Shown here piece by piece: positions 18,901 to 49,710 of a stretch of 64,000 nucleotides of DNA. The number at the start of each line of letters is the position of its first letter. Positions within the stretch are counted from its first letter, which is position 1. The notes beneath the pieces were generated by a model. It did no database searches and had not been told where the DNA came from. It saw nothing but the letters and a program-made list of their open reading frames with translations. The DNA is from a virus: positions 64,001-128,000 of the IMG/VR virus record IMGVR_UViG_3300035684_000001; one strand, given 5' to 3'. Position numbers and translations under genes: made by a program.

Positions 18901-21900
18901 CCTCTCAAGCAGAATATGCAGGTTTGGCAACGAAGATTACTGTACAGAAAAAAGGTCTTGGCGGACTGCTGGGTCAAACAGAAGATGTCTACAAAATTAA
19001 TCAAGCCGGTCAAAAATATATAGAAGAGCAATTGGCAGCATCTGCCAAAAATCAAGAAGGGATGTTTTCTAATGCTAGGTTGAGTGCTACGGCTGCATCT
19101 GTGGGAGCCAAGATTCCCGATCAATCGCTGTTAGATAAAGCTTTAATTGGGCAAGATTCATTGAATGATGCCATAAAAATTGCACCGGGGCAACCTGGAA
19201 AGTCGCAACAAATCCTACAACTGGAATCAATAAACAGCATATTAGCTGAAATTTTAACAGTTATAATTGGGCTGCAACCAGCATCAGTTCAAATACCCAG
19301 TAAACAGGTAATTGCTGAACCGCCCCGTGAAAAACTTCTACCATTAGAGGTTAAAGAAACAAGTTCTGCACAGAAATTCTTTGGCTTTTTAAGTCAAAGT
19401 ATAAAAGAAAATGCGCCAAAAATAACCAACTCTATTCAAGGTACTGTTAAATCTGGGATTGACAAAACTAAAGATTTTATTTCTTCACGAAAGCAAGCTT
19501 TTATCGAAAAGAAAACGTACTTGGCAGCTAAAGCAGGTGCGGGTATATTTGGTGGCACAGTTCCAAAAACCCCCGACGCGGTTGGTGTCACTGGAACGAT
19601 TGGCTTTGGTGATTTAGGTGCTAGCAGCACAAATGCAGCATGGGCTAATACCGCTTCAGCTATCACGGCGAACATTAATTCCTTGGTACAGCCAGCGGAG
19701 GATTCTGGGTACGAACTGCAAAAAGCTGTTTCTGAAGGTTCTCCCGGCCCAACTTACTGGATTCGACATTACTGGGAAAAAACTGTCGGGGCGATCGCTG
19801 GGTGGATGGGCGACATCCAGTCAACCGCTCAAGAAACCGGATCGGTTCTGCGCGGTAGCTTAACAAATTCAGCTAGCAAGATATTGCTATCGCCACCAAA
19901 AAACGACCTCAAAAGTCAGGCGATTCGATCTGCAAGTTTCTTCATGCTAGCTGTGGGTGATCGCTATCAGTATCTAGCCGATCGCGGAATAGGTAGCGCC
20001 AGTATTCTGTTCGCACCTGGGATGGAGTATGTCACAAGCAGCCTGAGTCAACTGGGTGAAGATTTAGTTGATTTTACCGGGCGATCGGCAAGAGCCTTGC
20101 TAACTCTAAATTTTGTGGAATTAGGGGACGCAGCTCACGACTTCTTCGGTAACTTCAAATATGGGGTGGGAGGGGTACTGTCGGGATTCAGTAGCATGAG
20201 TTTATCGGCGATCGCCTTCGGACTGTTTTCGCTGTCCGGTATTTCTCCGCTGCTTCTAGTCCTGGGGGGTGTCGCATTTACGGCTGCGGTAATCGTTGCG
20301 AACTTCTTGGGTATCCGAACGATTTTAACTGGGCTAATCAAAATTGGGATTGGTGCTGGCAAGATTTTGGCTGGAGTGCTGTGGGGATTAGTGGAAGCAG
20401 CGAGTGCTTTTAAAACGATCGCCCTAGGTATATTGCCCGCGCTGAAAGGAGATTTCACTCTAATCCAAGACGGCTTCCGGCGGCTGGGGTTTGCGTTTGA
20501 GAATTTTCAGCGTAGCGCGAGCGACGGGTTGAAGACGATCGCCCAAGGTTCAATCCAGATATTGCAGGGATTTGGTGAAGCGCTTGAACAAATTTTCCGA
20601 CCGTTAGGTTTTACCATCAAACAGACAACCGAATCTATCCAGAACTTTTTTTCAGCTTTCCGGTCTGGTGAGCAGGCGGGAGAAATGGTCGCATCTATAT
20701 TGATTGCTGCGGTCAAATCATTCACCAATGCTATCGGTTTTGCCATTGACAGTATTAAAAAGCATTTTCCAGTAATCAAGCAGCTTTTGGTAGAGCAACT
20801 TGATCTCGGAGTGCAGTCGATCAAAGACAAAATCTTTCAGGTTCAGGAAGCGATCAAGAATTTTACATTCAAAGATGCGATCACCAGTATCAGTCAACTC
20901 TTTGGTTCCATAGACGGATCTGTTGAGTCAGTTCCCGATCGCATCAAAAGATTAGCACCGGGAATCACTGAAGCTCTGACAGCACCTCTTAGATATGTTG
21001 GAGACTTCTGGCGGAGCTTTTTCAACACAATTCTCGCTGAGCTACCCCCAGAGATTGTGGCGACGATTCAGAAAGGGTTTGGCGACGCAATCTCCGCAGT
21101 TGAGCCGACGTTCCGGCAAATCCTCAAGACGTTGAACATTGAGGAATACTTTGATCGTGCGATAGTCAAGGTTCAAACTTCCTGGCAACACCTAAAAAAT
21201 TGGCTGGGGCAGAGTAACTTATTTCAAGTTGTGGGCGATCGGCTGCGCGAGGCTTTTAAGCCAGAAAACCTGTCTCAAGCTTTTCTTTCAACTATCAATA
21301 TCTTAGAGGCTGCATGGAGCAAGTTCGTTGGTTGGATGAGCGCAACTAATTTATTTGATTGGTTGTTCGCTCTCTTGCTCAAAGTCGGATCGGAATTTAC
21401 ATTGTTTGGAGATTTACTAAGAGAGAAGTGGTCGGATGTTCAAAAGTTGCTGGCATCTGGACAAGTATTCCAAGGATTCTTTGAGGGGATGAAGGATTTA
21501 GGTAGTAAACTAACTACCTGGGCGCTCGAAATTGGCTTAAAATTCGAGATACCAGCGATTCAAGACTTGTTTGTCAAGATTGCTTTATTAGGGGAAAATC
21601 TTAGCAATACAACGGCATTTATTCGAGAAAAATGGAATAAATTATCTGTTTGGTTAGCTGAGACTCCTCTGATTCCAGGGGCTTTAGACTTCCTAGTAGC
21701 ACTTGGTACAAAGTTTGGCGAGACAATATCTTGGATTAAATCTGAATGGCCCAATTTTATCACCTTCTTAACGTCGGCAGATTTGTTTGCGAATATATCT
21801 GCAAAGATGAAGAGTTTTGGCGAATCAATTCCCTCTTTGTTTGAAGAAATAAAAGGACAGGTAGCTAAAATTATTCCTAGCATGAATGGTGCAATCGGAT

Positions 21901-24900
21901 CTATCCAGGTTCAATGGCAACGTCTCACAGAATTCTTGAATAAAAAGGGTCTGTTTACACGGGTGTTTGCGGGACTGAGTGAAGCTCTGAATGAAAAGGG
22001 CTTGTTTACTAGGATTTTTACGGGAATCCAAGATATTCCGATCGCCCTTGGGAAAGTAGCAGACTGGATTAAGGAGAAATGGCAAAAGTTTGCCGTAGAG
22101 TTTCAAACGATATTGACTCCTATCGTAGACTTTGCTAAATGGCTGGGTCAAACCTTGATCAACTTATTGAACCATAGCCCGACGGTCAAGATCCCTGAAG
22201 CTTGGAAGGAAGCAGTCACCAAAATAACGAATTCGTTGTTGGCACTGATAGCGCCTGCGAGTTGGGTGGCAAGTCAAATTATCGAGAAGTTTAATTTAGA
22301 TGCAGTAAAAAATGGGTTTAAATCCCTGACTGGATTTATCTCTAATTTTGCAACCAGCTTGTTTTCTGAAGTTCAACAGCCACTGACAGACTTGATTGGC
22401 ATCGTAGTTTCTGCAAGTAAGTCAGTCATTGATTTTGGCAAAACTTTGTTCGACATTGCCAAGGCGGTAAATAGTGGGGCGATCGCCTCCGATGAGATGA
22501 CATCTAAATTAACGGGTGTGTCATCCGCCGTCAGACATTTGGGTGAATTCTTAGGAGTAATTCTACGGAGTTTAGGGCAGTTCTCTCAAGGATTAACTTC
22601 CGCTGGTGATGATGCCGATCGCGCATCTTCTGCGGGGAAAGGGTTGGGGCAAGTTGTAGGAAAGATGTTAGCTGGCATAGTTAGTTTCTCTACGACAGTC
22701 CTGCCACCTTTGTTCAAAGTGTTGTGGGTGTTTACGCAGATAGGTATTGAGATTTCAGCGTTCGCACTAAAGTTTGTATGGGCATTTCGCTTTGTACTGG
22801 ATTGGCCTAGTCGGGTAATGACCGCTGTTTTAGGTTTATACAATGCGGTCATGAGGTTTGTCGCGCTGTTGTCGTCATTCTCTCGTAAATCTAAGGAAGT
22901 TTTTGTAGGATTACAGGAAGGTTTTGCAAGCTTTAAGACTCAACTAGCAGGTGTTGCGCTGACTGCGAGTGAAATTGCAAGCAGTTTCCTCGGTTTCGCT
23001 AAAGACATCGGTACTTTCGGCTCGAAGATGGGAAGTGTCATAGCTGAAATATTAATCGGGCTGAAAGATGTAGGTGTTGCGCTTTTCAAGCTCGGCTTAG
23101 ATGTTTCCCTACCATTCGACATCTTCAGTGTGTTTAAAGGGATTCCCGACATAATTTCTAGCATAGGTGCTCTTGGCAGTAACGCCACTGAATTAAAAGG
23201 AAGGTTGATTTCAGAGTTGGGAGAATTGGGTGCAGCGATCACCCAGTTTCTCGAACAACCACTGAAAGCGGTGGGGGCAATTTGGGAAAAAACCGGAGGC
23301 AAAATTGTCGGGGCGATCGCGGGTATCGGTAGAAAAGCCAAGCAAACCGGACAACAATTGCAGGGCGATTTGTCGGAAGCGTCGCCGGGTCCGACTTACT
23401 GGATTCGCAAAAATTGGCTCAATACTACAGAGACTATCCAGAGTCAGTTGTCGGACTTGGCGCTGTCTGCAAAAATTGAAGGCAACGCAATTTACAAATT
23501 CTTAGACCGATCGCTCACCGCGTTATCTCCATCTAAAATTGCCGAAGCCGGGGAAGCACTTGGCGGACTGAAGTTTGATGCGCGACTAGCGATGTCGAAC
23601 GTGGGTCGTAATCCGAAAGTTGACACGCAAAGTAACCTTCATGTCATTACCGCACGGCAGTTGAGATTGAATGAACTCTACAAACAAGGGACGATCGACA
23701 GCAAAGTCTACACCCAAGGTTTGAAGAATTTAGAATCTGCCCACAAGCGGGTAACGCAAGCAGTCGAACAGGATACCGCTGCTAGGAAACAAGCTGGTGA
23801 AAGCGTTAGATCTTTGTCGCTGTCGATCGGTTCCGCACTGTCGAACATTGCCCCGCAGCTAGCGACGCCGATATTCATGTTCAATGACTTAGTGACTGCA
23901 TTCCTAGATATTCGGACTGCAATACCGGGGATGCGAGCTTTTTACGCAGCGAACGCAGCAAGTTCCGTAGCTGCTGACAGCGCGATCTCCGCATCCGCTT
24001 TAACCAAAGCTGGAATCGTGGGGGGTGCTAACGGGGCGATCGCCGCTTCTTACGGGTTTGTTGCGGGTGCTGCCAAGCTTGCCTATAGGTCAATGATTGT
24101 ACCGTTGCTGCCGTTTTTACCTTTGATATTAGGGATTAGCTCTGCCATATTTTTGCTGTACCGAGCTTACAAGGACAACATTGGCGACATTCAAGGGGTT
24201 ATGGAAAATGCAAAAAATAGTCTAGGTAATTTTGGATCGTGGATTCTTGAGTCTATTTCCAGTGTTGCTTCTGGAATTGTTGGAATGATTGCAGGCGTCC
24301 TTGGCCCATTGATTGAGGTCAGCAAATTTGCTTTTACTGTATTTGGGGTATTCGTTGAGTCACTACTGAAGATTGGCGCTGCTTTAGCTGTATTTTCTTT
24401 CCTGGGTCAAATAGGGAGTCTGTTTGTCAGCGCTGGGGCATTTGTTACTGGATTGGGGCTAGCAATTGTTGAATTTTCGACGATCGCTGGAAGTGTAGCC
24501 GCAGTATTTAGCGGAGTATTAGTTCCAGTGATTCTCAGTGGATTGAGTGCAATCTTTGCTGCGGCAGCCGCAGTAATCACCCCCTTTCTTCCTTTGATTC
24601 CATTAATTCTAGGAATTGTCACGGTCGGGTGGGTGCTGGGGAAAGTCTTCAACTTTGTTGGCAGTATTATCGGTGGCGTTTTCGGGGGGATTTGGAATTC
24701 GAGTACCGAAGTGGTTGGAACACTATTTCAGGAAATCAGTAATGTCTGGAGCGCACTCGCGGATCTAGGTGATCAAATTGTCCAACCATTCGCCCAAGCT
24801 TTTGGGGCTATCGCCAGTATCTTTGGCGGGGTAGATGGAAACATATCAGGGGTTGCCTCAACAATCATCCATGTGTTGCTGATTCCAGTTAAGCTTCTAG

Positions 24901-25880
24901 CTGCTGGCTTAATTACAATCATCAAGGCAATTTCATTTACGCTAATTGGCGTAATTAAAACGCTAGGGTTTGTTTTCAAGGTTGTCTCGAAGATTGTTCA
25001 ATCGGTTGCAATTGTCGGTACAGTGATCGCCGGAACAGTCGCGACTTTAGCCTTGATAGCAAATTTTGGTGTCGTGCTTGCTGGGATAACAGGAGCTCTT
25101 GGGGCGATCGGTACTGCTGTATCGGGAGTTGGCAGTGCCTTGATGGCGATCGGAGGCGTATTTGTCACAGTTGTCATTCCAGTCATTATGGGCGGCATTG
25201 GGGCTATAATTGCAGGTATTTCTGCTGCGGTGGTTGCAGCGTCACCTTTCTTGGCGATAATTCTTGGAGTTGTGGCGATCGGGTGGGTTTTGAAAGAAAC
25301 TTTCGTTGTAGTTGGAGGTGCTATTACTAGAGTTTTCCAAGGAATTTGGAACTTAATTCAGTGGGTTGTCACTAATTCAATGGGGATTCTAGCTAATATC
25401 CCCTTCGTTGGCGGATTGTTTGCTCCTTCATTGCGGAGTCAACCTTTACCGAGCCACCCACTACAGGTTCAGCCAGTACAGCGTTATGCGGTCGGTGGTT
25501 TGATATCGGGTCCGGGAACATCTACAGGCGATCGCGTTCCTATTTTGGCTTCACCTGGGGAGTATGTTATCAACGCTGCTGCTACGCGATCAAACCTACC
25601 GTTGTTGGAATCGATTAATCAGGGCGATCGGGTAGAAGCTTCTAACCTCCGCGCATTGCCCGTTCCCGCAACTCCAATTCCCCTTCCCCCTGTTGCATCT
25701 TCGCAGGCGACAGAGTATAACGTTCAATTAATTTTTGGAGATATTATAGTACAGGGTGCAAATCCAGGTTTTGCAGCAGAAGAATTATTACGCGAACTCA
25801 TGAAGCATTTGGAATCACCGCAAGCACAAAGAGTTATTCGCAATCAATTGCGCGATATTGTTGAAAAAGCGAAGCAATAA
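6921..25880 (+). CDS. Giant phage tail tape-measure protein (TP901/PhageMin_Tail core), ~6,300 aa
   Basis: TP901-type core (FDDKMSAVAAIS..AKLLGATTRFTAGEAADAEKYLAAAGF..GVPATLDLASAG..MENNLAGSFRSLGSAFE), long amphipathic and Trp-periodic helices, and C-terminal YAVGGLISGPGTSTGDRVPILASPGEYVINAAA. True start is more likely TTG 7005 or ATG 7080 than 6921. Confidence 0.93.
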   Translation: MVQFNETNISRYAGHPTQWGGFCCLGGILEESLDRYGLVGQFNFLVADGSFSSMKSVVKHLSNMEKAVADASKSVDSNGLAGQFKSAARSLDTSSGNMAKSLQPLKAEFRVLKATAANIDFGDVLDDRQFKKATTAVNTYVKNLKELRKQVQGETAAEREFTEVLKRQQRVIKDKLALHDAERKAAFFSQRKGEFGALQQVGNIALNPLKQAGKEAIQVFAGFDDKMSAVAAISRSTGKDLDRLRGKAKLLGATTRFTAGEAADAEKYLAAAGFNAQQIFAGVPATLDLASAGQLGLAESADIASNVLSGMRMGVSDLGHITDVMALSAASANTNIQQLGVAMSYAAPNAALFGAGIEETSALIGVMSNAGIQSDKAGTAARGAFLKLAAPTVRGRMALIQYGISLTDTSGKMRNIVDVMQDIGTNLQLDPASLDSIIQAGDDVEKLGQLAQSKQISALKDIFGTTGISGASAAISQMQEFTRLSLAGRGSSFAIEDYEKLFKSQGIDKLATDKDVFASLLREAGSYQDALQKLDAATIALVKSNEYLGNLSSTQLSQLSGYFQIPEGENLFDAILATAPDANAAVSKLTSAMGELGIEFKGKSGAAKTMAQVMENNLAGSFRSLGSAFEAVQVNLIEPIAPIVRAISDTLTKLLLAIANLPSPIRGLIAGVGVLTAGFAAVSVAVGTVGVVLFGFSQAAATATAAGIALQASVIPLTGFFPAAMAAFEGTASNPFKTASFAAEAFSDTIASTSKDVNLGLNGIARNIAVVSRSLISMSVSFALSPMGIAIASFLALNAILQQINPEINLLGTIFSAVSSIAGFAVGIIQGFGEALLAALDVPTSVAGSMLTAPFAAVSSAIEYATVAFETWRKSGRAIGVDIFKFVAQPFQLAGRAIETSWNFTLNYIKGLLTPFAGFVARIGKLLQGGLAEASPGPTYMIREKWDYTIAFLEKLFTRIRNAAGLVNRAFLGIGSVTESSKMEAQQQILQGAINLVTNSVKKLSVIGGTITQIQQFERSIIDGVRENFDFLSFTLLTLSSLPLTLLAQLEEGAALIVPELAFIIGEGIPRAFLYAMPGLVAIATSTGLIQGIERGFMGAIDAIPEFLERISDKIYNSLSVGMKQKLNQGLSEGLTSFARSMPAIFPGGVAINVDIDKSYLAIKDFIRGPLVGLIAYLHRVGDLSKEIGKEIYAGIEPILSFNPFTFFPLFSALPPLIPLVTAILPMEKALVSLAKSPSVQGIMGFLTGTVLPAALRTIAAISSLVIFTFNAIVTLPVLAVLQEVISRLTPITEILRAIALNAQSVAAAVGRSLLLAVDRAVIGIAALILEIPYIGKHLSAAFLVGTKALGGFFQLIAASAPRYLNLLLRFFPTKQLVALFSSYRKIFTDLMSGVVYAFREGLNPVSNILMKALNPAAAFKFLAFYIRTKGLAGIIKKGGFGGLSQIFNLANYINPIDIALGLNKSLNEVARLVSGSAVPLDFISRKQAEIFQVLATPAARRLAEREKRLVSLVEILESASGPMKVFIKLVQGLMMVSPIVQIVSRLGLTMLFWYNILKPVNKEMLDAIANTRLLGVSLMPVAKVLEVMRFVVVDLGEILFRFLKAIPGMAATVMDVFDKLGTGIGVTIHEIVGVSSILANVFKFSVINPLAGILLAVIAVADGTLIAVLATFKLIRLKTQQYGDAITALLRGNFVPLVKQIFSDLFGVINFGFQQTAMRAVSAISYLGKTVGTIVGASAAEIVRLIRDPIGEITRLTELSVKSLAAATAGVMVYVRQLQLDKLIRFAADFWPEILAVASVLGRIYGLLSPIQFAIVGLIELGGFLSYEYATGFQNLDKIITALQHPIDALNMAMQGIAGFLGLYISPDLTGFIGNLAEQFVKFLPVIGSGVFAIALLLTRNIGGAFQMISNNVLLFIGRILQVSEAIAGVGDRVRQVASSANIQVGLSEVANKVRRRSTVAGIANPLAYSQDFQTQQQATFLGDQRVAKSKAALRYQKELAKAQQQEQALSERALISEVKRGTDFGKGLADAERRYYLKDKNGITEGVSGAAVEKRRNRFGIEQYQVTDIGRQLLKMSGQGGENVKAGRGLQFENIRREAAKRSGLDAEFSRFGNAPSNEELVKLAGGKNVAIDLLTNFQKAMANLHVEDIKAEYLYVSKSKLPQVSKDKPDSERAFDIQVQRFKDKGNKDIGINSVASSSEIRKEMEAAKKATVNASTAFYSRLNAILAKVKTSPTDSSPSSKMFNPEADTQNYADRLKAAKAVDKQRPQGEFERTLADIIHTINERQTKMIVQTVTGFNNFEEANKQAARELQESSGRSRQVAIGFGEVAVQGVRNLGHSMQESSNLLEGQVASTRNSLVRTLFGWTGIPKILEAMRFDKTIAIQARIVQARTERIARSEATAALVLKRARERGLDALVKNNPEHANLDLLLVKMRQPENKQLYQFFNQFMETGKYQREATGNEITQLTEMLKASFGEKRPEFQGVDNLKTFLDRLKSAPDLNKEDIQKLRRYLTHGTGDRGKQLKENEFEALAKQLTNAGIGGENELLDLRTALRRDESLATVFDQYLLTGKFVLKASQEQQNQIAGFLGLSSSRELKNIDQIKLKNPLEQLKVNVRVYLESIDAGFERFNRSTISQIDSLESKLIKIPFMSVEMAENIVRPLRNFYAGIYRSALSAKDSSIKLAGDLYNAAEASVKGSKFVQRIEKLNKDFRIAQRNSLQHMMTEGREKAPKTHYQFMGQMFAELTKTDIKDRQVQDKILQSILKDQKDSEGNNISIKDRLLKLGMGDRIENITKALGKALDVNEARVREIVENPDYTAKSVAPYQFFLAKAFPDLIKNFTGGVTLLAAKSGAGGLIKKIVADISPALGKPVLIGLSNVIDRARIAMSVGTNRIAREVEGLIGTNPFSNFLNNFSRFLARSGDSLSKFFVDRANGFDAERAKSWTVKIVDKAGELFKTVAGVLVQAGNQAKSQQGGILGAIGNLFSGVKKFFSNVFGNKDIAKLQKQKEAAERLAQSEGDSRLGLAAKRRAATLGDRIEYTKQFNSPASKAKAALFGLAELLKTASQKVGQGADALNAQSRQAAIPQSETTIREASRGGRRHYRSLERRGLIDSADVSIDSGMAEYASNILPLTEKISASILKGASSAARGISTYFQGAATRTETAWQEATNRITGNNWWTMVKRAAWAGVKIVTSLNHRASDVTSAAWENTEHSTAANMNQMAQVAAGTGAEIAQDMQRAAQVTQQSIAHIPQVAEQATTKSVGFFHKLVGAMGGVGKAGMAVGGAVTAAGFAAQTAFFSLQNMGFIDEATGQSLYKVTELFTLVGAVGGLAAPVLTALGASFGAIVSISGATIAGLTGIGGAIAGAMGVAALPLAPLIAGVAAIGLAAGGLYLAFKNNFLGIGNLARSTGDMLSQALSAPISFITAAWQRFIDAFGGKLMAIIQPALNVAQGLINALNHNPTEKIPTAWEGAVASITGLIQGMVAPAKGVGEEMSEVLQADDAKQRRKTEFINSIALGATGEKQKLSWQENLQIGFGKVVAALTSVLSPLDSVGKKLDIQAQLLHAQIRQQQTAQAQTLWRFATNKERNKNLATRIEGMLQRRFSREAPQQLSHSARTMGGFVPRSGTTATAPPMLGALQQSGAGKGISKFGSLLKPIFGLGMLGEVGTLMLGIGGITTALSVLTLAFTTDFADIRTKTVKLTTAIGHLFSGAVQTIQRAWTGFVHWFLDMPLVDTALEMALGLIDALNHNPTEKIPAAWEGAVERISGAINWLITPAKEVAGILTGVFSPVSDFFSSKAKQANLVVSQGKEAVVNTKNSLTNTYAGMEGFFTQGSRAIESELHLHGQIFLSIVSTLNNIASYTKSLLSLLDKTQEETRSSAVAQAPDLGKSSVLAQRKYQIGFGLKGEGWKKRTEQSRQKDISNDLGQQKRGWNLFDRVHIPDFIEIRNVFDKESAFRTQIQAQMQKEELKIADTILQGLNSKSLSSQAEYAGLATKITVQKKGLGGLLGQTEDVYKINQAGQKYIEEQLAASAKNQEGMFSNARLSATAASVGAKIPDQSLLDKALIGQDSLNDAIKIAPGQPGKSQQILQLESINSILAEILTVIIGLQPASVQIPSKQVIAEPPREKLLPLEVKETSSAQKFFGFLSQSIKENAPKITNSIQGTVKSGIDKTKDFISSRKQAFIEKKTYLAAKAGAGIFGGTVPKTPDAVGVTGTIGFGDLGASSTNAAWANTASAITANINSLVQPAEDSGYELQKAVSEGSPGPTYWIRHYWEKTVGAIAGWMGDIQSTAQETGSVLRGSLTNSASKILLSPPKNDLKSQAIRSASFFMLAVGDRYQYLADRGIGSASILFAPGMEYVTSSLSQLGEDLVDFTGRSARALLTLNFVELGDAAHDFFGNFKYGVGGVLSGFSSMSLSAIAFGLFSLSGISPLLLVLGGVAFTAAVIVANFLGIRTILTGLIKIGIGAGKILAGVLWGLVEAASAFKTIALGILPALKGDFTLIQDGFRRLGFAFENFQRSASDGLKTIAQGSIQILQGFGEALEQIFRPLGFTIKQTTESIQNFFSAFRSGEQAGEMVASILIAAVKSFTNAIGFAIDSIKKHFPVIKQLLVEQLDLGVQSIKDKIFQVQEAIKNFTFKDAITSISQLFGSIDGSVESVPDRIKRLAPGITEALTAPLRYVGDFWRSFFNTILAELPPEIVATIQKGFGDAISAVEPTFRQILKTLNIEEYFDRAIVKVQTSWQHLKNWLGQSNLFQVVGDRLREAFKPENLSQAFLSTINILEAAWSKFVGWMSATNLFDWLFALLLKVGSEFTLFGDLLREKWSDVQKLLASGQVFQGFFEGMKDLGSKLTTWALEIGLKFEIPAIQDLFVKIALLGENLSNTTAFIREKWNKLSVWLAETPLIPGALDFLVALGTKFGETISWIKSEWPNFITFLTSADLFANISAKMKSFGESIPSLFEEIKGQVAKIIPSMNGAIGSIQVQWQRLTEFLNKKGLFTRVFAGLSEALNEKGLFTRIFTGIQDIPIALGKVADWIKEKWQKFAVEFQTILTPIVDFAKWLGQTLINLLNHSPTVKIPEAWKEAVTKITNSLLALIAPASWVASQIIEKFNLDAVKNGFKSLTGFISNFATSLFSEVQQPLTDLIGIVVSASKSVIDFGKTLFDIAKAVNSGAIASDEMTSKLTGVSSAVRHLGEFLGVILRSLGQFSQGLTSAGDDADRASSAGKGLGQVVGKMLAGIVSFSTTVLPPLFKVLWVFTQIGIEISAFALKFVWAFRFVLDWPSRVMTAVLGLYNAVMRFVALLSSFSRKSKEVFVGLQEGFASFKTQLAGVALTASEIASSFLGFAKDIGTFGSKMGSVIAEILIGLKDVGVALFKLGLDVSLPFDIFSVFKGIPDIISSIGALGSNATELKGRLISELGELGAAITQFLEQPLKAVGAIWEKTGGKIVGAIAGIGRKAKQTGQQLQGDLSEASPGPTYWIRKNWLNTTETIQSQLSDLALSAKIEGNAIYKFLDRSLTALSPSKIAEAGEALGGLKFDARLAMSNVGRNPKVDTQSNLHVITARQLRLNELYKQGTIDSKVYTQGLKNLESAHKRVTQAVEQDTAARKQAGESVRSLSLSIGSALSNIAPQLATPIFMFNDLVTAFLDIRTAIPGMRAFYAANAASSVAADSAISASALTKAGIVGGANGAIAASYGFVAGAAKLAYRSMIVPLLPFLPLILGISSAIFLLYRAYKDNIGDIQGVMENAKNSLGNFGSWILESISSVASGIVGMIAGVLGPLIEVSKFAFTVFGVFVESLLKIGAALAVFSFLGQIGSLFVSAGAFVTGLGLAIVEFSTIAGSVAAVFSGVLVPVILSGLSAIFAAAAAVITPFLPLIPLILGIVTVGWVLGKVFNFVGSIIGGVFGGIWNSSTEVVGTLFQEISNVWSALADLGDQIVQPFAQAFGAIASIFGGVDGNISGVASTIIHVLLIPVKLLAAGLITIIKAISFTLIGVIKTLGFVFKVVSKIVQSVAIVGTVIAGTVATLALIANFGVVLAGITGALGAIGTAVSGVGSALMAIGGVFVTVVIPVIMGGIGAIIAGISAAVVAASPFLAIILGVVAIGWVLKETFVVVGGAITRVFQGIWNLIQWVVTNSMGILANIPFVGGLFAPSLRSQPLPSHPLQVQPVQRYAVGGLISGPGTSTGDRVPILASPGEYVINAAATRSNLPLLESINQGDRVEASNLRALPVPATPIPLPPVASSQATEYNVQLIFGDIIVQGANPGFAAEELLRELMKHLESPQAQRVIRNQLRDIVEKAKQ
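6961..6993 (+). terminator. Hairpin plus U-tract immediately upstream of the tape-measure gene
   Basis: GCCACCCCA-cccaa-TGGGGCGGC followed by TTTTGTTGTTT. Confidence 0.45.
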
Positions 25881-27320: not shown

Positions 27321-27359
27321 GTGTTACAATAAGTATAATTCTAAACACAAACGACAATG
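27321..27359 (+). promoter_or_regulatory. Extended -10 promoter plus A/C-rich leader (type example of a recurrent motif)
   Basis: TGTGTTACAAT...TAAACACAAACGACAATG; related copies near 26278, 28178, 44103 and, on the minus strand, near 49223-49262. Confidence 0.6.
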
Positions 27360-27899
27360 AAAAAACAAATAGCAGCCTGTTTTCAAATTTCCGCCTACTC
27401 GGAAAAAACAAGAGAACAAATTGCTGAACGTATTCGCAATACCATCAAAGACTTAGACAAACCTTCCGATCCGATCGTAGAAGATTGGACAGGAGTAGAC
27501 CAAGAATGGCCACCAGAGCCAGAAGTCTATATCTTCTTCGACATGGAAGAAGAAGATGAAGTAGATGATAAAGGAATCCCGCTAAAAATCCTAAATGCGA
27601 TCGCGGGCGAAAATGTTTTTTTGTGGATGGGAGATGCCCCATCGTCTGAAGGTACTGTTCTTTTAGAAGCGAAACATCCAGAGAATGTCGAACAACACAT
27701 TCAATGGGTTGGTGTTTCGATAGATATGTACCAGCACACTTACATTGCCTGGAAAGCACACCCCTGTGCAGAGAAATACAAATGTAGCACGTCAGGGTGT
27801 CAAAAATTCGGAGAATGGTACTCGCTCCCGAAAAGTTTTGTTGAACTGACACGACCTGAGTGTCCGTCGTGCAATAAATTAGGCACAAAAATATCCTAA
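27357..27899 (+). CDS. Hypothetical protein with C-terminal Cys4 zinc-ribbon-like motif (MKKQIAA copy 1)
   Basis: 180 aa with CSTSGC...CPSC; paralog of 28221. Confidence 0.75.
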   Translation: MKKQIAACFQISAYSEKTREQIAERIRNTIKDLDKPSDPIVEDWTGVDQEWPPEPEVYIFFDMEEEDEVDDKGIPLKILNAIAGENVFLWMGDAPSSEGTVLLEAKHPENVEQHIQWVGVSIDMYQHTYIAWKAHPCAEKYKCSTSGCQKFGEWYSLPKSFVELTRPECPSCNKLGTKIS

Positions 27900-28220: not shown

Positions 28221-28742
28221 ATGAAAAAACAAATAGCAGCAGCTTGCCAAATCTCTGTCTACTCTGAATCTAAGGCAGAAGAAATAGCTAGTCGTCTTTG
28301 CAACACAATCACAGACTCAGGAAAACCATGTAATCCTATCGTAGAAGACTGGACGGGGGATGATACAAGTTGGCCACCAGAGCCCGAAGTCTACATCTTT
28401 TTCTGTATACAGGAAGAATGTGATGTGGATAATCGGGGAATCCCCGTAAAGATCCTAAATGCGATCACAGATGAAAATGTTAGCTTACGGATGGAGGAAG
28501 ATTTCTTGCTTGAAGCAAAACGTCCAGAAAGTATTGAGCAGCACTTTGAATGGGTGGGTGTTACTATCAATGAATATCAATCGATATACGCCAATCGAAA
28601 ATTCCATCCTGATGCGGAGCAATATAAACGCAACGTACCCAAATGGGAAAAATGGAACACCTAATGTTTGCTACCAAGAAACTTTAAATTTGCAGGATCA
28701 AAATGCTCGTCCTGCAACAAATTAGAGCAAAAAATATCCTGA
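28221..28742 (+). pseudogene. MKKQIAA copy 2 with premature in-frame TAA
   Basis: The ORF stops at TAA 28662-28664, but the same frame continues CLLPRNFKFAGSKCSSCNKLEQKIS*, matching the copy 1 C-terminus CPSCNKLGTKIS*. Confidence 0.75.
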
Positions 28743-28961: not shown

Positions 28962-29363
28962 TTAAGAGGCAGGTGTTGGCTGAATCGTAGGGAGTGGTTC
29001 GATTCTAGGTATTGAGTCGGCAGTAGCGGTTGGAGTAGCGGTTGGCTCTACATTAGCAACTGGTTGGGCTGGAATCTCGGATGCTGTTGGGTCTTCAACA
29101 ACAGTTGCCGTAAGTTTTTCGTTCATTGTGGCAATAGTAGCGCTGAACGTCCTCAGAGAAGCTACTAAAGCCTCTTCATCTTGTGCTTGCTTTGCATCTT
29201 CAGCCAGCTCTGTGCCTTTCAGGGAGTCAATTTCCGCTCGCTGCGATTTTATTAAACCAATCGCTTGTTCAATCGCCGGAGCAAAAACGTTCAATCCAGT
29301 GATTAGTTCTTGTACTTCTTGGAATACTTGTTGCATCTGAGTTTGCCTTATACTGGTTGCCAA
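28962..29363 (-). CDS. Hypothetical coiled-coil protein with Pro/Thr-rich tail
   Basis: 133-aa ORF; heptad-like N-terminal half and PTATPTAT-type tail. Confidence 0.65.
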   Translation of the reverse strand: MATSIRQTQMQQVFQEVQELITGLNVFAPAIEQAIGLIKSQRAEIDSLKGTELAEDAKQAQDEEALVASLRTFSATIATMNEKLTATVVEDPTASEIPAQPVANVEPTATPTATADSIPRIEPLPTIQPTPAS

Positions 29364-29389: not shown

Positions 29390-29782
29390 TTGCAAGTCAT
29401 GTATAACACAGAATCAGAGTTGATTTTTGCATTGAAACAATTGGCTGTTAAGCTCGATGAATTCAAAGCCTGGGCTGTTAGGCTAGATGTAGTTAAAGCT
29501 GCGGAAGTCGTAACAATCGCCCCGCCCGATAAACTTGATCGCGCGATCTCCGACCTAAAAATAGCCCTTGCGATTTCTGAAAAAATGCGATCGGATTGGG
29601 GGTTGCAAAAATTCAACGACAAAACGGTTACGGGGCGGTTGATGATTTTGGAGACAAAAATATTCGAGATTCCGCCACTGCTGATCCGATCGCGTCACCA
29701 TTTAAACGACGAGCTGGTTGAGTTGATTGGCTGGGATATTAAGGGCGATCAGCTGCGACTAACTTTTCGGATACTGAGTTAA
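29390..29782 (+). CDS. Hypothetical protein
   Basis: 130-aa ATG ORF, convergent with the response-regulator operon. Confidence 0.55.
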   Translation: MQVMYNTESELIFALKQLAVKLDEFKAWAVRLDVVKAAEVVTIAPPDKLDRAISDLKIALAISEKMRSDWGLQKFNDKTVTGRLMILETKIFEIPPLLIRSRHHLNDELVELIGWDIKGDQLRLTFRILS

Positions 29783-30684
29783 CGGAAGAGTTGTTCGATA
29801 ACAACCCTGATTTTATTTTGTATTTCAGGTAATTTGCTTGTCCATTTACTCCATAGCGAAGATGTGACAACAATTGTGGTAATAAAAGTAACAAATATCA
29901 TCTTTAGATTGTCAAAAACCATTTTATAGATTTCACTAAAAATAAATACACATAAATTACAAAACTTTTGATTGAGCTTAAGTAGCCAAATAGCTTTGCT
30001 TAATAGATTCAAAAGTTTAATATTTTTTTCTGTGCTTATAATTTTGAACTCCAATTGAAACTCGCTAAACTTTATATCTATAGTTTTGTAATTTTTTTCA
30101 ATTTCTGTAATTTGCTCTTTCAATTCATAAAGTAAGTTAAGTTGAGATTCTATAGCTTTAATATCGGTTGCTAGCGCCTGCAAGTTACTTGCTCCCGACA
30201 TTAGTAATATTCCGTCAAGTTGTTTTTCTACTCTACCGAGTCTTGCAAACAGCTCGTTAACGTAAATATTTTGTCGCAAGTTTAAATTATTTGACTCAAG
30301 GTTGGCGATCGCGTCTGGCAATGCGCTAGACTTTTGAACTAAATCTAACGCATTTTCTTTTGTTAGGCATTGATATCCTCTTTGTTTTATTTCTTGAACG
30401 AGAGCGGGATTTTTGTTTCCTGTTAGTACAACTATTTGAAGATCGGGAAAACCTTCTGCCTCTAGTGCGTCTAACGCTGCAAGGGGGTTGTCTGATTTTC
30501 TTACTAACCCTCCTAAGTCCAAAACAACACGCTTGATAGTATTATCAGCTTTTAAAATTTCTATCGCATCAGAAAGTTTTGTAGTAGAAGTAACTCCTTC
30601 AAAACCAGACTCTCGAAGAATTATTTCTGCAAATTCCCCATCGTTTGGGGAATCGTCTATTATCAATATTGGTGCGTTTGTCAT
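29779..30684 (-). CDS. Response regulator: REC domain + coiled coil + C-terminal transmembrane helix
   Basis: ILIIDDS, VVLDLG (phospho-Asp), VVLTG and LTKE are intact. A heptad region and the hydrophobic segment MIFVTFITTIVVTSSLW follow. ATGA overlap with the upstream regulator. Confidence 0.8.
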   Translation of the reverse strand: MTNAPILIIDDSPNDGEFAEIILRESGFEGVTSTTKLSDAIEILKADNTIKRVVLDLGGLVRKSDNPLAALDALEAEGFPDLQIVVLTGNKNPALVQEIKQRGYQCLTKENALDLVQKSSALPDAIANLESNNLNLRQNIYVNELFARLGRVEKQLDGILLMSGASNLQALATDIKAIESQLNLLYELKEQITEIEKNYKTIDIKFSEFQLEFKIISTEKNIKLLNLLSKAIWLLKLNQKFCNLCVFIFSEIYKMVFDNLKMIFVTFITTIVVTSSLWSKWTSKLPEIQNKIRVVIEQLFR

Positions 30685-31094
30685 AAATTTTTAGGTAATA
30701 GCGTGTGCCTGCAATAGAACATCAATATATTATTCAACAGATCTATTGTGTCGTCAAACTCCAAAGGTTTTACAGTATAAGCATTGCAATGACCGTCATA
30801 AGCATCGATGATGTCGTGAGTGTTTTTTGATGTAGTTAAAATAACTACTGGAATCCGTTTTATCCTCGCAGTATTTTTAATGAAACGTAAAACGTCTTTC
30901 CCTGAAACAAGCGGTAAATTCCAATCAAGAATCACTAAGTCTGGCTGATTTGGCTCTTGCAATCGCAAGATAGCCGATCGCCCGGTTTTGACAACTTCTA
31001 GGTTGATGTTAAGTTCTGTTTTTTCAAAAGCAATTTTTGCTATTTCAGCATCGTCGGGTGAATCTTCAACCAATAAAACACTATATTTAGTCAT
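30681..31094 (-). CDS. Single-domain response regulator, Rcp1-like
   Basis: VLLVEDSPDD, PDLVILDWNLP, RIPVVILTTS, NAYTVKP: typical of regulators paired with Cph1-type kinases. Confidence 0.9.
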   Translation of the reverse strand: MTKYSVLLVEDSPDDAEIAKIAFEKTELNINLEVVKTGRSAILRLQEPNQPDLVILDWNLPLVSGKDVLRFIKNTARIKRIPVVILTTSKNTHDIIDAYDGHCNAYTVKPLEFDDTIDLLNNILMFYCRHTLLPKNL

Positions 31095-31099
31095 TGTTT

Positions 31100-33121
31100 T
31101 TAAATTGCACTAAATAACAATCCTTCTGTTGATGCTGGAATTGTAAAGTAAAATATACTTCCAGTACCATCACCTTCAGACTCTACCCAAATATTGCCTT
31201 TGTGTCTATTAATCACTTTGCGACAAATAGCTAAGCCCATTCCCGTTCCAGGAAAATCAGATTCGCTGTGCAGTCTTTTCCAAATTTCAAAAATCTGTTT
31301 TTGATACTGCGGATCGATGCCAATACCGTTATCGGCAATTGCATATTTCCAAAACCTAGACCCTTCTAGGTGGCAACTAATCCATACCGAAGGAGTTTCA
31401 GTAAGGTCGTTAAACTTGATGGCATTGCTAATTAAATTTTGAAATACCGAAACCAACTGAGAACGATCGCAATTAATCGTTGGAAAATTTGGCGTTAAAA
31501 ATTCAATTTTTGCTTTTTTTCTAGTTATTAGATCTGTTAAATTGTCTATCGCTTCCTGAATGATAGATTCACTGCTGTTTGGCTCAAATGGTTTTTTATT
31601 TGAATTTATTCGACTTAACTGTAACTGTTCTTCAATTTGTTCAGATAGTTTTCTAACGCTTGACGATACCTTTTCTAGACGATTGGTAATTTCACTGTCT
31701 TTGACTCCAATAATAGTTAACCGATTTTCTAGTAGTTTTTGATTATTGGAAATCGCTCTTAATGGTTCTTGCAAATCATGAGACAGTGAATAAACCACTG
31801 TTTCTAGATCTTTTTGAAACATAAATTGTTCTGTGTAGTCGATCGCTACACCTATAATGTCTCCGTTTTCTAACAACACGGTATGATTGTGAAAAATTGT
31901 TCCGTTAGCGCTAACGAACCCTGAGTGAGTAGAAAGTTCAAAAGCTTCCTTAAAAAACTGTTGATTTTTTGGATAATTTGCATTTTCTTCAAAGATATTT
32001 TTCCCTAATAGTCCTTTGTGAAAAACTTGATAATCGACTAGACTGTTTCCTAAGCAATATGTACAAATTCCTAATTTATCAAGCTTGTATAGGACTATAG
32101 GTGCTGTTTCGATGATTCGATCGAGATAGTAAGCCTGAAGGTAGTCTGATTCTTTGTTGGCGATCGCGCTACAAATTATAAATCCAGCTTTTCTTAAAAA
32201 TGTACTTTCTACCTCATTCCATGCAACACAGGGTGACTCTATTTCGATAAATCCCCAGTGAATGCTATTGATAAAAATTGGTATTACAACTAATTCTGGT
32301 GTTATCACATCTTGATAACTAAGAGTTCTTGTTGTTGATAAACGATCTTCTTTTAATGTAAACAAACATTCGTCGCCAAATAAAATAGAACAATTATTTG
32401 CTTGAAACAACTGTTGCAAAGACTGAATAGAAGCTTTTACTAATACTTGAAACGTTTTCCAATCGCTTGGGGTATTTAACAATGATTTGATTTTGCTTAT
32501 TGTTTTTGTGTGACCGCGATCTATAAATACCAATTTTATGTCCGATCTGGCTATTGCGTACTCCAAATATTGACACGTTTGTATTATAAGCAATAAATCG
32601 CTTTCAACCCATTCACGACTATTTTCGTTCCAGCAAATAAGTGCGCCCCACTCCAAATTGTTGATCTCTATGCAGCCACTGAGAACAGACTCAATTCCAA
32701 GACTAGAAAGCTCCTCGTGGTAAGGAGATCTATCTTTAGTCATGTCAACGCTTTCGTAAATTTGCTGCGACAAACTTCTTAAATGCCGACCAACAAATTC
32801 TTTATGTATTATTTCATTCCACCTGTCTTTTGAAGCGTCTGCAAGAATCCTTGGTCCTCGATCGGTCAAGATTAAGTTAAATTCACAAATCAAAACGCCA
32901 TCACAGCCAATTATTTCTTTGACTTTGGCTGCAAGGGCAATCGCTGCATTGCATATCTCGTCACCTGACAAATTTCGTCCTTGAGGTAGTGCTGGAAGTC
33001 CTAAGAAGTTCTTACTCGTGAGCATAATTTTTTTCAAAACATAAACCCCTTCTGGGATACCCAGAAAGGGTTTATTGTAAAGGTTTTGGCTCATTATACT
33101 CTTTTTTGGGGTTGGTGGCAA
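31100..33121 (-). CDS. Sensor histidine kinase (GAF-GAF-PAS-like-HisKA-HATPase, Cph1/BphP-class kinase module)
   Basis: SHDLQEPLR (H-box), VFQNLISNAIKF (N), DNGIGID (G1), GTGMGLAIC (G2), with two N-terminal GAF-like segments. True start may be MSQ (33094) or MLT (33025). Confidence 0.9.
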   Translation of the reverse strand: MPPTPKKSIMSQNLYNKPFLGIPEGVYVLKKIMLTSKNFLGLPALPQGRNLSGDEICNAAIALAAKVKEIIGCDGVLICEFNLILTDRGPRILADASKDRWNEIIHKEFVGRHLRSLSQQIYESVDMTKDRSPYHEELSSLGIESVLSGCIEINNLEWGALICWNENSREWVESDLLLIIQTCQYLEYAIARSDIKLVFIDRGHTKTISKIKSLLNTPSDWKTFQVLVKASIQSLQQLFQANNCSILFGDECLFTLKEDRLSTTRTLSYQDVITPELVVIPIFINSIHWGFIEIESPCVAWNEVESTFLRKAGFIICSAIANKESDYLQAYYLDRIIETAPIVLYKLDKLGICTYCLGNSLVDYQVFHKGLLGKNIFEENANYPKNQQFFKEAFELSTHSGFVSANGTIFHNHTVLLENGDIIGVAIDYTEQFMFQKDLETVVYSLSHDLQEPLRAISNNQKLLENRLTIIGVKDSEITNRLEKVSSSVRKLSEQIEEQLQLSRINSNKKPFEPNSSESIIQEAIDNLTDLITRKKAKIEFLTPNFPTINCDRSQLVSVFQNLISNAIKFNDLTETPSVWISCHLEGSRFWKYAIADNGIGIDPQYQKQIFEIWKRLHSESDFPGTGMGLAICRKVINRHKGNIWVESEGDGTGSIFYFTIPASTEGLLFSAI

Positions 33122-33360: not shown

Positions 33361-33684
33361 ATGAAAGTACAAATTAAAACAGGTAGTGAATGGCACACTA
33401 CAGAGCGTCGCGGATCAATGGTAAAGATAAACGGCAAACCTATTTATGAAGTGCTAAAACCGATTAATAAGCCCGAATGGGAACTTGTCGGAAACAAAGG
33501 CACTCACGGTAAATGGTGCGTTGCAGAATACGAACTACCAAAAGGCGCAAAAATTGAATTTAAAGCTACAGCTAACAATCGCGAAGATATAGTTAGCTCT
33601 TTTGTTGTCGGAGAAATACCGTCAATCGATGTAGACGGCTATACTTACAACAATAGCATTTGCGGTTGGATTGTTTCAATTTAA
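33361..33684 (+). CDS. Hypothetical protein
   Basis: 107-aa ATG ORF after an AT-rich divergent promoter region. Confidence 0.65.
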   Translation: MKVQIKTGSEWHTTERRGSMVKINGKPIYEVLKPINKPEWELVGNKGTHGKWCVAEYELPKGAKIEFKATANNREDIVSSFVVGEIPSIDVDGYTYNNSICGWIVSI

Positions 33685-42209: not shown

Positions 42210-43757
42210 ATGAAATACAATCCGATCGCCAAACAAAACCAAATTAGTTGCGGGACTGGAAATGTTGCGGTAATTACCGGGTGGACGCCAGCACAAGTTA
42301 TAAAGGAAAAATTAAGTCTGCAAGACTACGGGGCGATCGGGCAACTGTATTCCCCCACTCGCGGTATTAATTTTTTGGTAAAGAACTTGTTGGCAAATCC
42401 TCAAATTAGGCATTTAGTATTGCTCAGCGCTACTGAAGCAGACAGAAACAGCGGCGCAATCGAAGTTTTTTTGTGGTTTTTACACTATGGATGCGAGAGA
42501 GGAGTTACAGATTTAGGACAAAAAGCATGGGTTATTAACTGCAACTGCAAAGAAAATAAGGATAGCAACAATTTATCTTTTCAGGGTAAGGGTTACATAG
42601 ACGCTGAAATTCCTGAACCGGATTTAAATTTGCTCAGAAAATCTCTGTCATGGGTCGTTGTCAGCAAAATCCAAGATTGCATTAACGAGGTGTGGGGTGT
42701 GCCAAAGAATACTGTACCTTGGGGGCTACCCAAAAATTATCCGGCTCCAGAACAAGAAGTGCCAAAAGTTATCCCGGGCGATCGGTACGGGCATCGGATT
42801 GAAGGCAAAACAATTGCCGAAACGTGGGTAAAGATCGTCCACCGCATTAAAACCACGGGAACTGTTAGACCAACAGGTTATGACGGTCACTGGCAAGAGT
42901 TAATTGACTTAATGGCGATCGTCACCGACGAACCCAAAGAATTCTATTTCCCAGAGCCGAATTACCTGTCGTGCGATCGCGCTTTTGTTGAAAAATATCG
43001 ATCGCAAATTTTAGAAGATACGCCCTACGAGGAAGGTGTTAAATATACCTACGCGCAGCGGATGCGGTCGTGGTTTGGATGTGATCAGATTGAAGAAGTT
43101 ATCAACAAGCTAATTAAAGAGATTGACGCAGCAAGTGCTGTAATTAGCTTGTGGGATTCAGGCGGGAATCTTTATAGAAGACCTGATGGTTCTTCCGATC
43201 ACCAGCACAGCGGTAGCCCTTGTTTAAATCAAGTTTGGGTGCGAGTCGTCAATGATGAAATGTCGATGACAGCGATCTTCCGCAGTAACGATATGTTTAG
43301 TGCATGGCCGGCTAATGCTATGGGGTTGCGGGCGTTGCAGCAACACATTCGAGACGAAATAGCTGGGCGATCAAGTTACGACTTAAAAATGGGACCGCTA
43401 ATCACTATCAGTCAAAGCGCTCATATTTACAGTGACTGCTGGGACTACGCAGATAAATTGATTACAGAACACTACGATCGCCTCGCAAAGAAAGAAGCGA
43501 GATCGTTTGCAGACCCTATTGGGAGTTTTTTGATATCAGTAAATAACAAAAACCAGTTAATTGAAGTCGAACACATTTCACCGAGTCCAGGTGATGAACC
43601 TCTTCAGTTTTTTGCTGGAAAAGACCCACAGGAGTTGGGTGTTCAAATCCTGAAAGCTTGCCCCGGAATACTAGCTTCCCATTGCTTGTACTTAGGAATT
43701 CAACTTAAAAAAGCATCCCAGTGTGCAATGAACGGGCTATCTTACACCCAAGAATAA
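42210..43757 (+). CDS. thyA: Thymidylate synthase, cyanobacterial long form (N-terminal MtrA-like, C-terminal DUF4346-like)
   Basis: SPCL (catalytic Cys), FRSNDMFSAWPAN, SAHIY, plus N- and C-terminal accessory domains. Confidence 0.85.
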   Translation: MKYNPIAKQNQISCGTGNVAVITGWTPAQVIKEKLSLQDYGAIGQLYSPTRGINFLVKNLLANPQIRHLVLLSATEADRNSGAIEVFLWFLHYGCERGVTDLGQKAWVINCNCKENKDSNNLSFQGKGYIDAEIPEPDLNLLRKSLSWVVVSKIQDCINEVWGVPKNTVPWGLPKNYPAPEQEVPKVIPGDRYGHRIEGKTIAETWVKIVHRIKTTGTVRPTGYDGHWQELIDLMAIVTDEPKEFYFPEPNYLSCDRAFVEKYRSQILEDTPYEEGVKYTYAQRMRSWFGCDQIEEVINKLIKEIDAASAVISLWDSGGNLYRRPDGSSDHQHSGSPCLNQVWVRVVNDEMSMTAIFRSNDMFSAWPANAMGLRALQQHIRDEIAGRSSYDLKMGPLITISQSAHIYSDCWDYADKLITEHYDRLAKKEARSFADPIGSFLISVNNKNQLIEVEHISPSPGDEPLQFFAGKDPQELGVQILKACPGILASHCLYLGIQLKKASQCAMNGLSYTQE

Positions 43758-49590: not shown

Positions 49591-49710
49591 TTGACAGACT
49601 AGCACGATCGGCGTCTTGTTTGGGAAGCCTCAAGTTAAGCTTCTTGGTTCGCAGGGATTCCAACGAATTTACCCTCTCCAAGCATCTTGACCGTGTGTCC
49701 CACGGCTGCA
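49591..49710 (-). ncRNA. omegaRNA-like scaffold, proximal copy overlapping the tnpB 3' end, with degenerate right end
   Basis: TGCAGCCGTGGGACACACGGTCAAG...GAGGGTAAA...AAGAAGC, a direct repeat of the distal copy at a 177-nt offset. Confidence 0.5.

Follow-up and report, generated by a model that had tools for sequence, protein, structure and literature searches.

A phage-encoded branched two-component operon with a receiver fused to a putative membrane module

The stretch of DNA analyzed here, called the window, comprises 64,000 nucleotides (nt), bases 64001-128000 of the linear, 188,553-bp IMG/VR virus record IMGVR_UViG_3300035684_000001, for which CheckV estimates a completeness of 67%. On its minus strand, three co-directional open reading frames (ORFs) at 31100-33121 (673 amino acids (aa) from a TTG), 30681-31094 (137 aa), and 29779-30684 (301 aa) encode a sensor histidine kinase, a stand-alone receiver (response regulator 1, RR1), and a receiver with a helical and hydrophobic tail (RR2). 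The trio is a branched two-component system of the classical HisKA type. It forms a lineage-specific accessory cassette, with its own promoter and opposite to the virion genes, in the tail region of a cyanophage of ~190 kb or larger. By analogy, and as a tentative reading that is favored among several, the kinase might phosphorylate both receivers, with phosphorylated RR2 (RR2~P) acting as a membrane effector and RR1 as a phosphoryl sink or buffer. The viral nature of the element, already assumed in a preliminary description made from the sequence alone, agrees with its status as an IMG/VR virus record.

The kinase and RR1 genes are separated by 5 nt, and those of RR1 and RR2 are joined by an ATGA start/stop overlap, coordinates that bear out the tight coupling of the three genes reported previously. 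The term phosphorelay, which had been applied to the operon, could not be sustained. No histidine phosphotransfer (Hpt) domain (PF01627) was found at E <= 0.1 in the 188.5-kb record, itself estimated to be 67% complete, and no receiver is fused to the kinase. Because there is one kinase with two receivers, and neither an Hpt domain nor a hybrid kinase, the system is a branched one. In a record-wide domain search, the trio supplied the sole kinase and the sole two receivers of the whole record. Pfam scans of the trio found no DNA-binding or enzymatic output domain, in agreement with the earlier remark that a DNA-binding output is missing.

The phosphotransfer residues, previously described as all intact, are indeed so in the family alignments of the three proteins. 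The kinase shows no variation across 12 sequences in H416 or in the N, G1, F, and G2 boxes (H416, N534, D565/G567/G569, F579, G593-G597). In RR1, E10, D57, T88, and K109 are invariant in 17 sequences, and D11 is present in at least 90% of them. In RR2, the invariant set comprises D10, D11, D56, T88, and K109 (12 sequences), and in the AlphaFold2 (AF2) model the conserved pocket residues fall where strands beta1, beta3, beta4, and beta5 end.

The kinase and its two receivers

The kinase most likely starts at the ATG at 33025, giving a soluble protein of 641 aa (31100-33025, minus strand), and not at the TTG at 33121, because the homologues have ~640 aa and the promoter sits inside the TTG-extended reading frame. 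Pfam recognizes HisKA with 29.7 bits and HATPase_c with 82 bits, and no hydrophobic span was found in the protein. The dimerization and histidine phosphotransfer (DHp) domain, with the H-box SHDLQEPLR around H416, and the catalytic ATP-binding (CA) domain extend over 31127-31831. Their fold matches HK853, CpxA, and ThkA with Z about 16-17, and the closest solved relative of the kinase core is the bacteriophytochrome kinase 8f71 (E 5.9e-35). In the AF2 model, which has a mean predicted local distance difference test (pLDDT) score of 62, the domain order is GAF (residues ~12-166), GAF-like (~170-300), PAS-like (~308-398, low confidence), DHp, and CA. The GAF-GAF-PAS-like kinase of the preliminary description is therefore recovered, the first domain by Pfam, PDB profile, and fold, and the other two by AF2 topology alone.

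The first domain (GAF1; 32528-32992, minus strand) is of the cyanobacteriochrome (CBCR)/phytochrome type with a degenerate chromophore pocket. Pfam GAF was assigned to it in all 12 family members (best E 2.8e-18), and its fold matches the bilin-binding GAF domain of DrBphP with Z 16.9 and a root-mean-square deviation of 2.6 A over 146 residues. The best solved relatives of a sensor-only profile are NpR6012g4 (6.9e-12) and AnPixJg2 (2.7e-10), and the same profile also matches miRFP670nano, Slr1393g3, TePixJ, and RcaE. In the HMMER alignment, the column of the chromophore Cys (SPCH) is occupied by Y102 (S-P-Y-H) and that of the pocket Asp (W-E-D) by G79; both columns are unconserved across the 12 family members. 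Since the chromophore Cys and the pocket Asp are replaced, light sensing is unsupported. Judging from these alignments, the sensor most likely descends from photoreceptor kinases and has lost its chromophore.

The second GAF-like, or PHY-like, domain (GAF2; 32126-32518, minus strand) has no Pfam match of its own and is recognized by its AF2 topology, with pLDDT mostly 70-90. Multi-domain fits to phytochrome GAF-PHY cover model residues 5-290 and 5-398. The PAS-like domain (31832-32104, minus strand) carries the motif GTxFHNHTVLL; its secondary structure fits, its pLDDT is below 50, and the PAS fold is assigned to residues ~308-398 as a tentative prediction from the model. This is the best conserved part of the sensor and is near-invariant even at 40% overall identity. 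Six invariant cysteines, C41, C131, C151, C212, C220, and C324, are among the most conserved features of the sensor.

RR1 (30681-31094, minus strand) belongs to the Rcp1 subfamily, stands alone as a receiver, and has a Response_reg score of 61 bits. Its PDB matches are Rcp1 (1i3c; 1.3e-19), RcpA (1.6e-17), RcpB (4.7e-14), and phytochrome-linked regulators. Together with those of the kinase core and GAF1, these profile matches uphold the view, already expressed in the preliminary description, that the regulator is Rcp1-like and that kinase and RR1 are of cyanobacterial phytochrome-CBCR-Rcp1 ancestry. The copies in the phage lineage share at least 54% identity, and the next best sequences, from varied bacteria, at most 44%. 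Similarity between RR1 and RR2 is confined to beta1-alpha1, with 38% identity over 26 residues. The beta1-alpha1 region is the main specificity surface in the pairing of kinases with regulators, and it is on this shared surface that both receivers are regarded as targets of the kinase.

RR2 begins with a divergent receiver domain with a full acidic pocket (residues 1-128; 30301-30684, minus strand), which reaches 27.5 bits with Response_reg, just below the gathering cut-off of 30.2. Foldseek searches with the RR2 model returned receiver domains alone, with template modeling scores of 0.7-0.77 on the target, and the family profile gave nothing at E <= 0.01 against PDB sequences. A KaiA-like identity, with a pseudo-receiver and a helical domain, was considered and rejected, as Pfam KaiA gave no match at lenient thresholds and the acidic pocket is complete. 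The receiver is followed by a helical/coiled-coil region (residues ~136-215; 30040-30279, minus strand) with AF2 helices at 136-162 and 168-213. A heptad pattern extends over ~165-215, with a heptad score of up to 0.9 at residues 181-200, and a conserved helical block comprises E144, L145, F146, R148, R151, E153, Q155, D157, L160, and L161.

The C-terminal part of RR2 is a putative membrane module (29782-29961, minus strand), recognized by hydrophobicity, with an amphipathic segment (241-258), a hydrophobic helix (260-278), and a second amphipathic segment (281-300). In the window protein, helix 260-278 is uniformly hydrophobic with a Hessa sum of ~0 kcal/mol. A hydrophobic helix with Hessa sums of 0.0-2.0 kcal/mol occupies the same position in all 12 members, though its sequence varies. 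Because this helix, placed between amphipathic ones, keeps its position in all members, RR2 is probably membrane-anchored. The arrangement of receiver, coiled coil, and C-terminal hydrophobic helix given in the preliminary description is consistent with the alignment, the AF2 helices, the heptads, and the Hessa values. Residues W233, W278, and P286 are invariant.

Alternatively, RR2 might be soluble, the hydrophobic helix being buried in a bundle, and act as a phosphorylation-controlled coiled-coil adaptor resembling FrzS and AglZ, which are receiver-coiled-coil proteins. The segment is short (17-19 residues), Thr/Ser-rich, and borderline by its Hessa sums (0 to 2 kcal/mol), the flanking charges give no clear topology, and the AF2 model places it in one long helix (218-274). 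Against such a role, it is hydrophobicity and not sequence that is conserved there across members of 39-90% identity, and invariant Trp residues are found at both ends. The hydrophobic moment of 0.29, between flanks of 1.41 (241-258) and 1.37 (281-300), is typical of a membrane-spanning helix accompanied by interfacial ones. A soluble adaptor is accordingly considered improbable.

The operon is preceded by a sigma-70-type promoter (TTGCCA, 17 nt, TATAAT; 33093-33121, minus strand), which gave 11 of 12 consensus matches in a consensus scan. Both hexamers are kept in the related contigs L004, L005, and L011, and L009 has TACAAT. The 5' leader contains a terminator-like hairpin with a U-rich run (33035-33088, minus strand) that ends 10 nt ahead of the kinase ATG. 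Its predicted RNA fold has an energy of -27.4 kcal/mol (z -5.8), equaled by none of 200 shuffled sequences, and the stem is kept in relatives with compensating changes (A-U to G-C and G-U to A-U). Promoter and hairpin are conserved among relatives whose kinases share 65-88% identity, and the hairpin may be an attenuator or a stabilizing 5' structure. The plus-strand sequence forms the hairpin just as well, and it could also halt antisense transcription from the tail genes. Rfam contains no family matching the operon or its leader.

Distribution and selection of the operon

Homologues of RR2 are rare. Only 12 were recovered among 5.8 billion proteins and none in 185,579 species genomes, and one further IMG/VR contig with RR2 belongs to a sister phage. 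The sensor has ten homologues, every one from the same virus lineage. The trio was found in ~14 related metagenomic contigs, which are phage-like wherever the context is informative, and it is complete on every long-enough contig (the window, L002, L003/L004, L005, L009, and L010). Identity of RR2 to the window protein amounts to 79% in L003/L004 (contigs up to 195 kb), 60% in L009, and 39% in L002 (a contig of 192 kb). Another contig, L015, carries RR1 and a frameshifted RR2 at its end, beside a small terminase gene. The frameshift breaks the receiver of this RR2 copy (L015:701-1634), leaving one ORF of 45 aa and, after it, another of 273 aa; the gene has either become a pseudogene or been misassembled. 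Receivers of ~30% identity in other IMG/VR contigs (L017-L022) were examined and set aside as a different system, being orphans with no kinase nearby.

The C-terminal module of RR2 (residues 131-301) has no Pfam family beyond noise and matched no PADLOC model. Searched exhaustively with its profile, 1.84 billion representatives yielded its own family, one frameshifted member, and two chance matches to coiled coils, and nothing else. In the ESM Atlas, whole RR2 led to an unnamed viral cluster and generic receivers, and the C-terminal part gave no usable match. Among PHROGs, RR2 matches a single family, which contains a receiver and is of unknown function, and NCBIfam gave domain-level matches alone, far under the cut-offs. 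DNA-level comparison with plasmid and phage collections yielded no match. A look for expression data listed no RNA set, and the one full match was a biocrust metagenome, which may be the source.

All three genes, the C-terminal module of RR2 included, are under strong purifying selection as estimated from sequence comparison with L004. The ratios of nonsynonymous to synonymous substitution rates (dN/dS) are 0.049 for the kinase, 0.024 for RR1, and 0.124 for RR2, with synonymous sites near saturation. Inside RR2, the receiver has values of 0.04-0.05 and the C-terminal module 0.13.

The preliminary description had allowed for the operon being a common chromosomal module recently captured. The search for its architecture of receiver, coiled coil, and hydrophobic helix speaks against this, because such proteins are encoded on phage-like contigs alone and never apart from this kinase and RR1. 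Passive carriage of a recently captured host sensory operon, devoid of any phage-specific role, would be consistent with the clearly cyanobacterial ancestry of kinase and RR1 and with base composition, the operon having a guanine-cytosine content of 35-39% and being AT-richer than the surrounding structural genes. This explanation is nevertheless hardly credible, since the searches turned up no counterpart in cells for either the sensor or RR2. Identity of RR1 to cellular proteins does not exceed 44%, and the phage lineage itself has diverged to 39-54% with synteny kept. The saturated synonymous sites and the dN/dS values of 0.02-0.13 argue in the same direction, as do the sites of the HIP1 octamer GCGATCGC inside the operon. 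This octamer occurs 33 times in the window against 0.9 expected, two of the sites being within the operon, and its density points to a cyanobacterial host, or to long residence in one.

Possible function and relation to known systems

The operon resembles Detocs, a defensive two-component system of DtcA, DtcB, and DtcC with a tetratricopeptide repeat (TPR)-based DtcA sensor, in which the kinase senses, the stand-alone receiver DtcB has been proposed as a buffer, and a receiver-effector acts; membrane-spanning effector variants of it exist (Rousset et al., bioRxiv 10.1101/2023.01.24.525353). Both systems have the same gene order, with a kinase, a stand-alone receiver, and a receiver fused to a non-DNA-binding effector, and both are carried on mobile DNA. 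They differ in the sensor, which is TPR-based in DtcA and a GAF-GAF-PAS assembly of CBCR ancestry here, in the Rcp1 type of RR1, and in the effector, which here consists of a coiled coil and one hydrophobic helix and has no enzymatic domain. Moreover, Detocs is encoded by bacteria whereas the present operon is encoded by a phage. With PADLOC-DB v2.0.0, a release in which the presence of Detocs models is unconfirmed, the kinase and RR2 gave no match and RR1 matched PDC-M60B weakly (1.7e-6).

The second comparison is with the Cph1-Rcp1 and CBCR systems. RR1 matches Rcp1, RcpA, and RcpB, the kinase core has its nearest relatives among bacteriophytochrome kinases, GAF1 shares homology with bilin-binding GAF domains, and the tandem GAF-GAF unit aligns with phytochrome GAF-PHY. 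In contrast to those systems, the kinase described here has no N-terminal PAS domain, its domains being ordered GAF-GAF-PAS and not PAS-GAF-PHY, and the Cys and Asp of the pocket have given way to Y102 and G79, neither of which is conserved. An extra receiver with a predicted membrane anchor is present, and the system is restricted to phages.

In the favored reading, the kinase would read an intracellular cue through its GAF, GAF, and PAS domains, autophosphorylate on H416, and serve as phosphoryl donor for both receivers. RR2~P would be the effector. Phosphorylation of its receiver might alter the packing of the coiled coil and thereby change the membrane-embedded end, which could oligomerize, disturb the membrane, or engage a partner located in it. 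RR1 would compete for phosphoryl groups as a sink or buffer and so set a threshold, as proposed for DtcB in Detocs. By the same analogy, the most likely use would be the control of cell fate or of the cell surface during infection, for instance in the exclusion of competing phages or as an abortive-type switch; membership of a canonical lysis cassette is less likely. The defense-type and signaling genes found beside the trio in relatives (an AAA_21/SMC_N ATPase, a MASE1 kinase, and Cas1) are counted in favor of this reading.

Several points weigh against it. The helical part of RR2 is modeled by AF2 with low confidence (pLDDT 40-70), the charges beside the hydrophobic helix show no consistent inside/outside bias, and predicted hydrophobicity is the sole basis for the membrane anchoring. 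The PADLOC scan revealed no sequence link to Detocs or to any defense family. The small receiver of cyanobacterial kinase-Rcp1 pairs normally serves as the output and not as a sink. An abortive-type effector, in addition, needs a rationale on a phage that apparently does not integrate; no tyrosine integrase was found in the 67%-complete record.

RR1 might itself be the real output. On the model of cellular phytochrome/CBCR-Rcp1 or CheY-like pathways, diffusible RR1~P would then bind a host machine, e.g., the type IV pilus motor or some other complex in the membrane, RR2 would serve as a membrane-tethered scaffold, localizer, or sink, and the phage would tune host behavior or metabolism to day/night or redox state. 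RR1 is a bona fide Rcp1-subfamily receiver and by dN/dS the most constrained of the three proteins. The descent of the kinase core and GAF1 from photosensory kinases, the host sigma-70 type of the promoter, and the PadR-family genes in the same record, which suggest an investment in host timing, are in line with such a role. Light input is, however, unsupported with the bilin-binding Cys and Asp unconserved, and no host target of Rcp1-type receivers is known to us. The strict co-inheritance of RR2 and the purifying selection on its module also argue that it is more than a sink, and this alternative appears somewhat unlikely. A separate proposal, by which a degenerate photoreceptor-type kinase would read the redox, metabolite, or day-night state of the host and the receiver-membrane module would trigger lysis, exclusion of rivals, or killing, is doubtful as a whole.

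Two-component signaling and the Detocs-like architecture are already known. No earlier description appears to exist of a complete pathway borne by a phage, of a degenerate sensor of CBCR type, or of a receiver joined to this new membrane module; the literature consulted contained agr-type kinases of phages and phage proteins that interfere with the host, and no phage-borne trio of such design. Complete phage-encoded systems of kinase and receiver have hardly been described. If the favored reading were true, large phages would make signal-dependent decisions with their own two-component circuitry, and the Detocs logic of sensor, buffer, and effector would have emerged, or found a second use, beyond bacterial defense. 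Receiver domains would also gain a new minimal membrane output. Were the proposal of a sensory switch for host state correct instead, the operon would represent the first two-component pathway wholly owned by a phage from input to output, and receiver domains would acquire a new class of effector. The trio is a tractable test case, as its three genes are small, the point mutations to make are clear, and effects can be read in growth, membrane-integrity, and phage-plating assays.

Genomic surroundings

The operon of the window, L003/L004, and L002 is flanked by a ~6,300-codon tape-measure gene on one side and by the genes for a GH19/M23 protein and fibers on the other, and it runs on the strand opposite to theirs. 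The divergent orientation described previously is correct, except that a small ORF (33361-33684) intervenes before the GH19/M23 gene. The immediately divergent gene differs between the window and L004, which makes this a variable spot beside the operon. The operon has the appearance of an accessory element inserted among tail genes. The tape-measure assignment of the giant gene, a single 6,319-codon ORF at 6921-25880 on the plus strand, comes from the Pfam PhageMin_Tail domain in its L003/L004 homologues.

The GH19/M23 protein has 504 aa, with a middle part of 180 aa, and its PHROG matches include endolysin as well as tape-measure, tail-fiber, and minor-head families. Among the adjacent genes, neither small protein flanking it has a hydrophobic span, and no holin-like or small multi-span neighbor is present. 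It is probably a virion-associated lysin and not part of a lysis cassette, because the tape-measure gene precedes it, the fiber genes come after it, its PHROG matches are of mixed tail type, and its flanks are devoid of hydrophobic spans.

These surroundings bear on the possibility that RR2 is a phosphorylation-gated holin, antiholin, or XhlA-like protein tying lysis to the signal of the kinase. Its cytoplasmic domain, coiled coil, and hydrophobic helix recall small phage lysis proteins, and the operon is divergent from the GH19/M23 gene in three lineages. XhlA and holins likewise are phage-encoded and have a helical or coiled-coil cytoplasmic part followed by one near-C-terminal hydrophobic helix. 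RR2 is, however, three times larger, contains a receiver domain, and has no recognizable adjacent holin-endolysin cassette. It shows no homology to any PHROG lysis family or Pfam holin, and the XhlA kinship suggested in the preliminary description did not hold, Pfam XhlA having appeared in one of five members at E 0.33, which is noise. Nor did the step from lysin adjacency to lysis control. The GH19/M23 gene belongs to the tail module and has no holin-like neighbor, its adjacency is lost in L009, where a Cas1-like gene stands upstream of the operon in its place, and the downstream context is different in L015. The operon, moreover, has its own early-type promoter and is on the opposite strand. 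Lysis timing is thus an improbable role for RR2.

The neighbors of the operon vary among its relatives. In L009, a 5.5-kb contig from a Xenococcaceae metagenome-assembled genome bin, the gene directly upstream of the kinase encodes the Cas1-family protein of 276 aa (1266-2096, plus strand). In the most distant clade, the genes downstream of the operon (L002:11020-14193 and L010:3712-5202) are convergent with RR2 and encode a membrane kinase with MASE1 and HATPase_c domains and, in L002, also an SMC_N/AAA_21-type ATPase. By their domain content, the neighbors in L002 and L010 may form a small signaling or defense-like island. In the window, two small genes are found just 3' of RR2, at 29390-29782 on the plus strand (79% identity in L004) and at 28962-29363 on the minus strand (59%). 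The former converges on RR2, the two genes overlapping by 4 nt at the RR2 stop codon.

Two paralogous small ORFs at 27357-27899 and 28221-28664 (plus strand) encode proteins of 180 and 147 aa whose N-terminal halves are nearly the same (MKKQIAA...EDWTG...WPPEPEVYIFF). Neither has a Pfam match, and the tail of the former contains a zinc-ribbon-like CxxC...CxxC arrangement. A 515-aa protein at 42210-43757 (plus strand) combines a thymidylate-synthase-like domain with PterinBD-DUF4346, and L002 and L010 encode the same fusion close to the operon. Eco57I-type methylase and SNF2/DEAD helicase domains occur together in a protein exceeding 1,263 aa at 2-3790 (minus strand), and a TnpB gene (OrfB_IS605 and Cas12f-like TNB) is located at 49635-50840 (minus strand). 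The two PadR-family genes of the record occupy record positions 176098-176313 and 187824-188045.

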